From: Escherichia phage FP43
Reading direction: 5' to 3' (one strand)
Sequence record: MN648445
DNA: 64,000 nt
How positions within the stretch are numbered: position 1 is the stretch's first letter; every line of letters starts with the position of its first letter. Both the position numbers and the translations under genes were made by a program. The notes beneath the pieces are model-generated. The model was not told where the DNA came from and made no database searches. It saw nothing but the letters and a program-made list of their open reading frames with translations. Positions 2,172 to 50,519 of the stretch are shown here, piece by piece.

Positions 2172-2202
2172 GTAGATAAATAACCCTTAACTTGAGGTAA
2201 AT

Positions 2203-6699: not shown

Positions 6700-7647
6700 A
6701 TGACACGTTCACATTACATTGAATACTTTGCCGGTCTTATCGCTAACGCTCACGCTCAACGTGCTATTGGTGCTTGGACTGATGTTCCACATAAAGGTGT
6801 GGTTTATAGTATTCTTCGTGATTTTCTTACATACACAGGCCAAGAAAATCATATCTGTAAAGATACTCAGAATGCGTATTCTCATTCATTAGGGACCCTG
6901 CTTCAATGGTTCAAACGTTCTCGTTTATTATCTTCTACTGTAGCTCGTGATAACATCAAAAACTTTATGAAGCCGAGCTTTATTAAATCTGTGACATCTA
7001 AAACCGATTTGGTTGAATTCACTATTGTTAATGATGTTAAAAAGACTCATTTGGCTGATTGGTTATCTACCATTCCTGAAACTAAATTTGCTGATAAATT
7101 TGCTTATGAATTCAATAACCAAGTGAATATGCTTTTTAAACATTCTCGTAAATTATTCACGGGCGGTGATGGTCGTACAAATAAAGTTCATGTTAAAGAT
7201 TGGGTTACTGCAGTATTCAAACCAACAGGTAATGGTAACGCATCATTGTCAATTGATATCCAGGTTCCTTATTACTACTCACGTAATCTCGGTACCATGA
7301 AAGCCGAAGAAATTAATAAGCACAACAAAACTATTCGTTCGTTGTCTTATAAACTTATTACATTGTTAGAGACTATGGATGTTGTTGAAACGTTCGACGA
7401 ATCCGAAGATAACGGTTCAATGTTATACAGTTCTCGCACCCGAATTAAGCTGAAGAACCCTAACGAGTATAAACTTAAGACTATTAAAGAACCTAAAGTA
7501 GAAAAAGTTGACAACTTGAGCGAAGAACGTGAATATCTCAAATCTCGTCTGAAAGAAGTCGAAGCCCAGATTAAAGAACAGACTAAATCGTTAAAAGCTC
7601 TGAATGCGAAAGCGGACGGTTTACGAAATGCCATTGAGGTGTTATAA
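6700..7647 (+). CDS. hypothetical protein with C-terminal coiled-coil
   Basis: 315 aa; same promoter type as 5678 gene; RBS GAGAGG. Confidence 0.55.
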   Translation: MTRSHYIEYFAGLIANAHAQRAIGAWTDVPHKGVVYSILRDFLTYTGQENHICKDTQNAYSHSLGTLLQWFKRSRLLSSTVARDNIKNFMKPSFIKSVTSKTDLVEFTIVNDVKKTHLADWLSTIPETKFADKFAYEFNNQVNMLFKHSRKLFTGGDGRTNKVHVKDWVTAVFKPTGNGNASLSIDIQVPYYYSRNLGTMKAEEINKHNKTIRSLSYKLITLLETMDVVETFDESEDNGSMLYSSRTRIKLKNPNEYKLKTIKEPKVEKVDNLSEEREYLKSRLKEVEAQIKEQTKSLKALNAKADGLRNAIEVL

Positions 7648-7952
7648 TGAACCTACGTCTTCTAGAGGATATTGATATGAGCACTAATCATGGCTTAGTT
7701 AAGTTTATTGATGATAGTTCAAAGATTGAATTTGTCCAGCGAGATAAAATTCATGGTGAAGAAGAGTTCGTTCCTCCAGCATGGAACGAAATAATGAAAA
7801 TGGTTGAACGACGTGAAAATGCTGCCAAATCGGCAGCAAAACATCCGTGTCCGGAATGTGGAACTATCCAAGTCCAACTGGTTAACTGGACCAGTGATAA
7901 CTTGAAATTGAAATGCCGTAAATGCTTCCACAAATTTGAGAGAACATTATAA
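7647..7952 (+). CDS. zinc-ribbon protein
   Basis: 101 aa; CPEC...CRKC cysteine pairs; TAATG overlap with upstream gene. Confidence 0.5.
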   Translation: MNLRLLEDIDMSTNHGLVKFIDDSSKIEFVQRDKIHGEEEFVPPAWNEIMKMVERRENAAKSAAKHPCPECGTIQVQLVNWTSDNLKLKCRKCFHKFERTL

Positions 7953-9417: not shown

Positions 9418-9588
9418 ATGCAAGTTAAATTATTGTACCGTTTATTAAAAAATGGCAAGCATGATTGGTATTTGCTTATTAAAACCGATCCGAATTTTTT
9501 CTCTGGACAACCGTTTACAGTTCGTCCTACTAAACGTCAGCTTCGCAAAGCTAAACGTTCTCATCGTAACTTTTATAGAGAATATTGA
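9418..9588 (+). CDS. small basic protein
   Basis: ATG at 9418 within ORF 9391..9588; basic C-terminus. Confidence 0.3.
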   Translation: MQVKLLYRLLKNGKHDWYLLIKTDPNFFSGQPFTVRPTKRQLRKAKRSHRNFYREY

Positions 9589-9589
9589 T

Positions 9590-10003
9590 ATGAATATTTC
9601 TGAAACTCGCGGTAAATGGTTCAAGATTGTTAAAGAAGACGAAGAACTACAAGTCAAGTTTCCTGAATTAAAGAAAGGAACAATCATCAAGGTAATTGGT
9701 ACTACTACCGAAGATGGTTATGGCGACCATGGCATTATCGAAGTGATGTTGAACACAGGTGAGAAACTTTGCATCTATGACCGTGATACTTCTCTTTGGT
9801 GCTTCTGGGAATCCCATTCAATAGATGAACTCGAAGAAATTGACCAAGTAGTTTGTGATGGTGGACTTGGTGAATTCGAAGGTGAACGTATTTCTTATGC
9901 TTTAGCTAAATTAGCTTGTCAAGAAAATAATGACGGTTATGAAGGTAATCTGATGCAAGCCGCAGCGGAATACATTGAATATTTAGAAAGACGTTTAAGT
10001 TAA
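9590..10003 (+). CDS. hypothetical acidic protein
   Basis: ATG 9590 immediately after upstream stop; 137 aa. Confidence 0.45.
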   Translation: MNISETRGKWFKIVKEDEELQVKFPELKKGTIIKVIGTTTEDGYGDHGIIEVMLNTGEKLCIYDRDTSLWCFWESHSIDELEEIDQVVCDGGLGEFEGERISYALAKLACQENNDGYEGNLMQAAAEYIEYLERRLS

Positions 10004-10037
10004 TAAATACCCTTATCTATTTAAGGTAAGGGTTTAT
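10002..10037 (+). promoter_or_regulatory. late-promoter-like AATAAATA plus RBS-sequestering hairpin upstream of gene 49
   Basis: AATAAATA then ACCCTTA-N11-TAAGGGT hairpin containing the SD-like AAGG; same architecture as described for T4 gene 49. Confidence 0.4.
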
Positions 10038-10038
10038 T

Positions 10039-10512
10039 ATGTTATTATCTGGCAAATTATACAAAGAAGAAAAACAAAAATTTTATGATGCACAGAACGG
10101 TAAGTGTCCTATTTGCCACCGTGAATTAGACCCTGATGTTCAAGGTAACCATCTTGACCACGACCATGAATTAAACGGGCCAAAAGCTGGTAAGGTTCGT
10201 GGTTTACTATGTAACCTGTGCAATGCAGCAGAAGGTCAAATGAAGCATAAGTTCAACCGTTCTGGTCTTAAAGGTCAAAACGTTGATTACCTCGAATGGC
10301 TTGAAGCTCTTCTTGCTTATTTGAAACAAGACTATTCTGATAATAATGTCCATCCTAATTTTGTTCCAGACAAAACTAAAGAGTTCTCAAGACTAGGTAA
10401 AGAGGAAATGATGACCGAGATGCTTCAAAGAGGATTTGAATATAATGAATCTGATACTAAAACACAATTAATAGCTTCATTCAAAAAGCAGCTTAGAAAG
10501 AGTTTAAAATGA
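10039..10512 (+). CDS. 49: endonuclease VII (Holliday junction resolvase), gene 49
   Basis: 157 aa; near-identical to remembered T4 EndoVII (MLLTGKLYKEEKQKFYDAQNGKC...HLDHDHELNGPKAGKVRGLLCNLCN). Confidence 0.9.
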   Translation: MLLSGKLYKEEKQKFYDAQNGKCPICHRELDPDVQGNHLDHDHELNGPKAGKVRGLLCNLCNAAEGQMKHKFNRSGLKGQNVDYLEWLEALLAYLKQDYSDNNVHPNFVPDKTKEFSRLGKEEMMTEMLQRGFEYNESDTKTQLIASFKKQLRKSLK

Positions 10513-16205: not shown

Positions 16206-16226
16206 GAATTGAGCCAAGAGGTACTT

Positions 16227-16784
16227 ATGACTGAACAAAAACCTAAAAATAACTATGTGAATAATAAAGAGCTTCTCGCCGCTATAATCGAGTGGAAAAA
16301 GGAGCTCTTAAATAATAAAGACCCAAACAAAATTATTCGTCAGAATGATACCATCGGTTTAGCAATTATGCTTATCGCCGAAGGCCTGTCCAAACGTTTC
16401 AACTTTTCAGGATATACCCAGTCTTGGAAGCAGGAGATGATTGCAGATGGGATTGAAGCCTCTATTAAGGGACTTCATAATTTCGACGAAACTAAGTACA
16501 ATAACCCACATGCATACATAACTCGAGCTTGTTTTAATGCTTTTGTCCAACGTATCAAAAAAGAACGTAAGGAAGTTGCAAAGAAATATAGTTACTTCGT
16601 TCATAATGTCTACGACAGTCATGACGATGATATGGTAGCGTTGGTAGATGAAACGTTTATTCAAGACATCTACGATAAAATGACGCATTATGAAGAATCC
16701 GCTTATAAAGCTCCTGGGGCTGAAAAGAAGGAAGTTGTTAGCGATTCGCCTAGTTTGGATTTTTTATATGAGGATGACAATTGA
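16227..16784 (+). CDS. 55: late-transcription sigma factor gp55
   Basis: Near-identical to remembered T4 gp55 ([20 protein letters not shown]...[24 protein letters not shown]). Confidence 0.9.
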
Positions 16785-42112: not shown

Positions 42113-42120
42113 TATAAATA
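42113..42120 (+). promoter_or_regulatory. T4 late-promoter motif upstream of soc
   Basis: Exact TATAAATA, 32 nt upstream of soc ATG; soc is a late gene in T4. Confidence 0.55.
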
Positions 42121-42151
42121 CACCTGTAATTAAACAACAAAGGAGTTAATT

Positions 42152-42388
42152 ATGGGTGGTTATGTAAACATCAAAACCTTTACGCATCCTGCTGGTGAAG
42201 GTAAAGAAGTTAAAGGTATGGAAGTTTCTGTGCCGTTTGAGATTTATTCAAACGAACATCGGATTGCAGATTCTCATTACCAAATCTTTCCATCAGAAAA
42301 GGCAGCTTATTCTACTGTAGTTTCTGATGCAGCTGACTGGAAAACTAAGAACGCTGCAATGTTTACCCCTACACCAGTAAGTGGTTAA
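42152..42388 (+). CDS. soc: small outer capsid protein Soc
   Basis: GYVNIKTF...HYQIFPSEKAAYSTV matches remembered T4 Soc; exact TATAAATA late promoter upstream. Confidence 0.75.
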   Translation: MGGYVNIKTFTHPAGEGKEVKGMEVSVPFEIYSNEHRIADSHYQIFPSEKAAYSTVVSDAADWKTKNAAMFTPTPVSG

Positions 42389-49994: not shown

Positions 49995-50519
49995 ATGTTA
50001 GTTTACCGCGTAGAACGTAGTTTTTGTACTCAACGTGAATCATTACCAGGAATTGTTATCGAAGACGGTAAAGCCGTCAGAATTTGGGAAACCTCTTGGA
50101 ATAAAGAACCTCGCTCACCTTACGGTTGGTCTGGCACTGACAACTCTGAAGAAACATGGGAGTTCCTTGATAAGCATGGAATACTCTCAGGTAACTTCTA
50201 CCATCACGGCGACAACTATAATGTCCCTAATCGTCCTACAGTAAATGAAGACAAACTTCTTGAACAAAATATCTTAAGATACCATAGAATTGAGTACACA
50301 TTTGAATTGAGTGAAGATTGGGCTCAAGGGTTCTATTTTGGATTTGAAAGCGTTGACGCGGTTTATGCATGGTTTGATGACCAGGTGGATGTTGAACTCT
50401 TGAAAGCTAAAGGATACTACATCGCGGTCTATGAAGCACCTGATTTCATCCTCGGAAGTTGTCAATTAATGTTTAGACGTTCATTGGCAGAACAAGTTGA
50501 TTTTATTTTGCTAAAATGA
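49995..50519 (+). CDS. hypothetical protein
   Basis: 174-aa ORF with promoter and GAGGAG RBS. Confidence 0.5.
   Translation: MLVYRVERSFCTQRESLPGIVIEDGKAVRIWETSWNKEPRSPYGWSGTDNSEETWEFLDKHGILSGNFYHHGDNYNVPNRPTVNEDKLLEQNILRYHRIEYTFELSEDWAQGFYFGFESVDAVYAWFDDQVDVELLKAKGYYIAVYEAPDFILGSCQLMFRRSLAEQVDFILLK

Follow-up and report, generated by a model that had tools for sequence, protein, structure and literature searches.

The window analysed here, 64,000 nucleotides in all, comes from a T4-like phage and shares 99% identity with the Mosigvirus (RB69-like) Escherichia phage LF82-41. Gene 49 lies between a homologue of pin and the genes nrdD and nrdG, in that order, and the neighbouring genes are all on the + strand (Table 1). 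Its product, endonuclease VII, cuts branched DNA. Since the match to pin is confined to part of the upstream reading frame (residues 51-183), the true pin start is probably downstream of 9452. The pin stop codon (TAA, 10001-10003) overlaps the octamer AATAAATA, whose last A stands 30 nt from the gene 49 ATG. The leader, running through this motif, a hairpin and the ATG, reads GTTAATAAATACCCTTATCTATTTAAGGTAAGGGTTTATTATG.

Table 1. Coordinates of gene 49, its leader elements and associated genes in the window
Feature	Position	Strand	Details
pin (inhibitor of host Lon protease), upstream gene	9452-10003	+	phrog_2167, E = 6e-51, residues 51-183
Outer A-U helix, 5' strand UAAUAA	10001-10006	+	pairs with 10034-10039
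gp55-type late-promoter motif AATAAATA, A(-13) variant	10002-10009	+	sequence; same in T4
Hairpin 5' arm ACCCUUAUCU	10009-10018	+	RNA folding, covariation
Predicted late transcription start, A	10015	+	-13 to -6 rule; 6 nt past the last A of the motif
Hairpin loop AUUUA, 5 nt	10019-10023	+	RNA folding
Hairpin 3' arm AGGUAAGGGU, both Shine-Dalgarno-like runs within	10024-10033	+	RNA folding
Outer helix, 3' strand UUAUUA, ending on the A of AUG	10034-10039	+	RNA folding
Gene 49, recombination endonuclease VII, 157 aa, regulated gene	10039-10512	+	ATG 10039-10041; phrog_423, E = 3e-60
Gene 55 homologue, late sigma factor	16209-16784	+	phrog_234 'late sigma transcription factor', E = 4e-68

In megablast, homology to T4 sets in exactly at position 10001. 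From there to the ATG, 41 of 41 nt agree with the T4 gene 49 leader: AATAAATA, the two arms of the hairpin with their loop, the spacer and the start codon. Identity drops to about 85% in the coding region, which places the leader under stronger constraint than the gene. The same pin lies upstream in T4 and the same genes downstream (49, nrdD, nrdG). In T4 the pin stop does not reach the octamer but ends 4 nt short of it; in the window the two overlap. In T4, translation also starts at an internal GTG, codon 53, to give the 12-kDa gp49' (AF158101 annotation). This codon (10195-10197) is GTT in the window and GTA in close T4 relatives, and GTG was found in only 5 of the 47 sequences tallied (46 loci and the window). 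With GTG replaced by GTT, the 'two nested proteins' part of the T4 arrangement probably does not apply here, and the nested product is probably not conserved.

A late-promoter-like motif upstream of the ATG had been proposed from the letters of the sequence, and AATAAATA was found exactly as described. The T4 late-promoter consensus is TATAAATA at -13 to -6 (PMC1524935), from which AATAAATA departs at -13. The listed T4 late promoters number 50, of which 32 match perfectly and 9 carry A at -13 (PMC2988020). Such motifs are scarce in the window although it is AT-rich, with 2 copies of TATAAATA observed against 7.4 expected and 2 of AATAAATA against 9.8. ATAAATA is depleted about four-fold over both strands (7 sites vs 28 +/- 5.4 expected), and the only four copies on the coding strand each lie just upstream of an ORF start (4/4). 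From this deficit, stray late promoters seem to be selected against in this early-gene region. The gene 55 product, the trans-acting factor needed by the motif, is encoded in the window. Transcription is predicted from motif spacing to start at about A10015, within the 5' arm; the GenBank and RefSeq records of T4 annotate no promoter features for the gene 49 leader region. Tandem late motifs, TATAAATA at 2163-2170 and GATAAATA at 2175-2182 (+), also precede the ORF at 2203-2463 (86 aa, phrog_2243). No significant hairpin was detected at 2163-2182 (z = -0.3; opening cost 4.6 kcal/mol), so the motif alone does not imply a switch.

Transcription could also reach gene 49 from further upstream. There is an early-type promoter, with an extended -10, at 7620-7648, and the terminator-like sites before gene 49 are all weak. 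A regular-expression search for MotA boxes upstream of the gene gave a single site, near 7127, too little to define the read-through promoters; in T4, the mapped middle promoters PnrdC(1,2) lie upstream of the operon/nrdC. An RNA-seq time course of T4 classed gene 49 mRNA as 'early', like that of e, whose protein is 'late' (PMC9697503 Table S2); gp49 protein was not detected in the proteome set of the same study (PMC9697503 Table S2). Given the identical sequence, this early RNA indicates that read-through does occur in T4. By analogy, gene 49 probably belongs to an early/middle unit in the phage studied here as well, and read-through RNA would be made. Within gene 49 itself, a MotA-type middle-promoter motif (TGCTT-N15-TATAAT, 10421-10446, +) matches the position of T4 PnrdD+ (46440) and of an annotated middle promoter in SA20RB. 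This motif presumably lets nrdD be transcribed independently of gene 49.

Folding of the gene 49 start region

The sequence-only reading had drawn a hairpin between ACCCTTA (10009-10015) and TAAGGGT (10027-10033) that would hide the Shine-Dalgarno sequence. Both arms are present, but the minimum-energy stem has 10 bp, including one G.U pair (U10016-G10025), and closes on a 5-nt loop, in place of the 7 bp and 11-nt loop first drawn. In this 10-bp geometry both purine runs, AAGG and AAGGG, are paired and neither falls in the loop, so the proposed sequestration held. The best anti-Shine-Dalgarno match in the 3' arm is GUAAGGGU at 10026-10033. A competing 5-bp inner hairpin (CCUUA at 10011-10015 with UAAGG at 10022-10026) was rejected, the 10-bp stem holding 69% of the ensemble.

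RNA folding, which had been suggested as a check, gave a stable core hairpin (-12.4 kcal/mol, z = -4.1), equalled by 1 of 200 shuffles. The 41-nt element as a whole folded at -14.7 kcal/mol (z = -4.1), and none of 200 shuffles was as good. Its antisense folded more weakly (-10.7 kcal/mol) because the U10016-G10025 wobble turns into a C.A mismatch, and this asymmetry points to an RNA element of the sense strand. An Rfam search of the element returned chance-level matches only (<=27 bits vs gathering thresholds of 54-140). We also computed the cost of opening the ribosome-binding site (RBS; positions -16 to +5) for the 79 plus-strand genes of the window. At 17.1 kcal/mol, gene 49 ranked 4 of 79 (median 5.7, sd 3.7).

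The two kinds of transcript differed sharply in the same calculation. For read-through RNA starting 50-140 nt upstream, the probability that AAGGGU is unpaired was about 0.013, and opening 10024-10044 cost 15-17 kcal/mol. For RNA starting at 10013-10017 the corresponding values were about 0.55 and 3.3-4.6 kcal/mol, with about 3.5-3.6 kcal/mol at the predicted start, A10015. The predicted late RNA lacks 10009-10014, which removes six of the ten bases of the 5' arm. It retains a 5'-terminal AUCU that may pair weakly with AGGU, for which the probability of being unpaired was about 0.33.

Other start sites in the window were sequestered as well. A gene for a Soc-like small virion protein (phrog_1715; ORF 42152-42388, +) follows gene 56. 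It is preceded by a perfect TATAAATA (42113-42120) and then a 13-bp hairpin (42121-42133 with 42147-42159) that pairs the AUG; its RBS opening cost was 12.9 kcal/mol (rank 7/79). This element looks like the T4 soc version of the late-promoter/hairpin switch. The most sequestered sites belong to the ORFs starting at 49995, 37293 and 43971 (+), at 21.0, 20.0 and 18.4 kcal/mol, respectively, with phrog_1106, phrog_2110 and an ADP-ribosylase-like protein as products. Each of these hairpins has an early-promoter-like extended -10 inside it, as in CCTCTGGTT-TTGATATTATAACC-...-AACCAGAGGAG. Placing a promoter inside a hairpin thus seems to be a logic also used with sigma-70-type promoters.

Gene 49 leaders of relatives and competing explanations

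IMG/VR was scanned twice with gp49, giving loci that span 98% to about 32% protein identity. Fifty of the 57 distinct 45-nt leaders place TAAATA 18-34 nt ahead of the start codon, at the same position relative to gene 49. All 50 motif-bearing leaders are from T4-like phages (gp49 identity 37-98%). The other seven leaders, which lack the motif, served as negative controls; they comprise L107 and homologues from outside the T4-like group, several being G+C-rich. In 49 of the 50 motif leaders, starting the RNA at the predicted +1 made the RBS at least 5 kcal/mol cheaper to open relative to read-through RNA. Across the 28 closer leaders the mean opening cost fell from 15.7 kcal/mol in read-through RNA to 4.4 kcal/mol in the predicted late RNA. 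TAAAT is invariant in these 28 distinct leaders, as is the A of alignment column 14, equivalent to position 10015 (28/28), and the predicted +1 is A in 26 of them.

Pairing was conserved as well. On a MAFFT alignment, RNAalifold found 6 of the 10 pairs and no more, since the loops differ in length and four divergent leaders fall out of register; an explicit 10-pair helix was therefore scored with slid and shuffled controls. Over the 28 distinct leaders, 90% of the cells of this helix were paired, against 36-48% when the partners were slid by 1-3 columns. Cells changed on both sides numbered 54 in the helix and 0-15 in the slid controls. The covariation score was 0.464 (slid controls <=0.13), a value reached by none of 500 shuffles. 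Pairs 9-39 and 10-38 each occur as CG, GC, AU and UA, and the position of the conserved G.U pair is U-G in 24 of 28 leaders.

The arms differ completely in sequence from clade to clade: CCCUUAUCU/AGGUAAGGG, GGUUCAUCU/AGGUGAACC, CCUCUAUA/UAUAGAGG, GAGUCAU/AUGACUC and AUGACACC/GGUGUUAU. At a 44RR-like locus the arms are AAGAGCAU/AUGCUCUU, and the start codon itself is paired. Aeh1-like gene 49 leaders (L041-L044) combine (A/G)CTAAATA with the GAGUCAU/AUGACUC stem, and CTAAATA-type sequences are the divergent late-promoter consensus reported for the Aeh1 lineage. A motif that tracks the late-promoter specificity of each lineage, next to a stem conserved in structure alone, is what a translational switch predicts. 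Arms that are complementary yet unrelated, together with such a motif, provide strong evolutionary evidence that the structure is functional.

The cassette might do more than time translation. The junction at the promoter is mosaic. Homology to T4 starts at 10001 in the window, and the joint also involves the loci L002, L003 and L128 (864-1043). In LF82-41 and other closest relatives, pin and gene 49 are separated by an additional small ORF of about 190 bp, and in L002 and L003 TATAAATA replaces AATAAATA and the upstream sequence is different. Taken together, the abrupt start of homology and the differing upstream modules and -13 base of the relatives mean that the cassette may be a recombination joint for T-even modules. 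The stem might further attenuate transcription weakly, or ribosomes terminating at the overlapping pin stop might open it. Early output of endonuclease VII would then be coupled to pin translation. We consider such additional roles rather unlikely.

Another explanation is that the hairpin serves chiefly as an intrinsic terminator or attenuator, ending early transcription of the pin operon ahead of gene 49, and that hiding of the RBS is incidental. A permissive consensus scan did score 10009-10033 followed by TTATTATGTT as terminator-like, with 10 pairs, four of them G-C, and a T-rich tail. Nor is read-through strictly needed for nrdD, which in T4 has its own middle promoter inside gene 49, matched by the motif at 10421-10446 described above. 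However, the stem is A/U-rich, with G-C at only 4 of 10 pairs, and the U tract of the tail, UUAUUAUG, is interrupted. The tail is also not T-rich elsewhere: it is TAATGCTC in Aeh1-like and ATGCTGAC in RB43-like leaders, and in the 44RR-like leader the 3' arm coincides with the start codon. Pairing of the Shine-Dalgarno sequence or AUG, and the fixed join to the late motif, are kept in all of these clades. The early classing of gene 49 RNA in T4, whose leader sequence is identical, likewise argues against efficient termination at the hairpin. As a Rho-independent terminator, judged on a G+C-rich stem, an uninterrupted U tract and conservation in relatives, the element was rejected, and we hold it improbable that termination is its main function.

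The hairpin could instead serve RNA processing or stability, for instance by being cut by a nuclease or by shielding the 3' end of pin mRNA, with the late 5' ends arising by cleavage and not by initiation at AATAAATA. Some T4 'late promoter' 5' ends come from primer extension, which is blind to initiation versus processing (PMC2988020). Yet the TAAAT that abuts the stem on its 5' side never varies, although the stem itself changes freely in sequence, and the motif becomes CTAAATA exactly in the lineage that uses CTAAATA late promoters. A cleavage site is not expected to track promoter specificity, and this explanation appears very improbable. It is least likely of all that the inverted repeat acts in DNA, as an operator or cruciform, or is a chance palindrome beside a real promoter: although the near-perfect repeat overlaps the promoter, like the I-TevI operator over its late promoter (PMC2988022), the arms keep complementarity and not sequence across clades, the conserved G.U pair is a mismatch in DNA and weakens the antisense fold, the 3' arm always covers the Shine-Dalgarno sequence or the AUG, and shuffle z-scores of about -4 together with the covariation exclude chance.

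Proposed two-promoter switch and known counterparts

We consider it very likely that gene 49 is controlled by a two-promoter translational switch, as described for T4; this is the reading we prefer. Early and middle transcripts would start upstream, cross pin and carry the whole inverted repeat. On this RNA, the 10-bp hairpin and the 6-bp outer helix would pair the Shine-Dalgarno purines and the A of the AUG. The 30S subunits would bind it poorly, and little full-length endonuclease VII would be made. The pin stop ends 6 nt before the 5' arm, however, and ribosomes terminating there could melt the hairpin, making early repression leaky. After the onset of replication, RNA polymerase carrying gp55 would recognise AATAAATA and start at about A10015. 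The resulting late RNA, devoid of most of the 5' arm (6 of 10 bases) and of the whole outer helix, should have an open RBS. Endonuclease VII would thus be made late, when branched DNA needs resolving for packaging. Produced too early, the enzyme is expected to damage replication and recombination intermediates, so a delay until packaging makes sense. The effect of the switch on translation in this phage is a prediction of the folding model.

The switch in the T4 gene 49 leader was reportedly described by Barth, Powell, Trupin and Mosig in 1988 (Genetics 120:329), who are also said to have discussed processing within the gene 49 hairpin. We judge the element to be a genuine and conserved switch, with predicted early silence and late translation, already known from T4. 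It has been textbook knowledge since 1988, and the copy studied here is identical in sequence to that of T4. What the present analysis adds is modest and comparative. The promoter-in-hairpin design is kept before gene 49 in T4, RB69, RB43-like, 44RR-like and Aeh1-like phages, and at loci with about 37% gp49 identity. These leaders form a clean set on which the annotation of late promoters and regulated starts in T4-like genomes can be tested.

According to one review, the Shine-Dalgarno sequence and/or the AUG of T4 genes 49, e, soc and I-TevI is covered by an inhibitory RNA helix (PMC3014915). With T4 gene 49 in this review list (PMC3014915) and its leader matched base for base, the suggestion from sequence that the T4 architecture is conserved here was supported. 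A second review sets out the promoter-inside-hairpin logic for e, soc and I-TevI, citing Barth et al. 1988 (PMC2988022). These three follow the same logic as gene 49: a late gene lies in an early unit, its Shine-Dalgarno sequence and/or AUG is paired on the long RNA, and a TATAAATA-type promoter is placed so that the late RNA loses the 5' strand, as predicted here. They are different genes, and their hairpin sequences are unrelated to that of gene 49. For e, the 5' ends and a roughly 100-fold effect on translation were measured (PMC3014915; PMC2988022), whereas here the 5' end and an effect on translation are predicted from sequence. In Aeromonas phage Aeh1, a distant T4-like phage, the mobE hairpin (Gibb and Edgell 2007, 2009, cited in PMC2988022) also sequesters an RBS and is coupled to a late promoter, in front of a different gene. 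This case shows family-wide use of the device.
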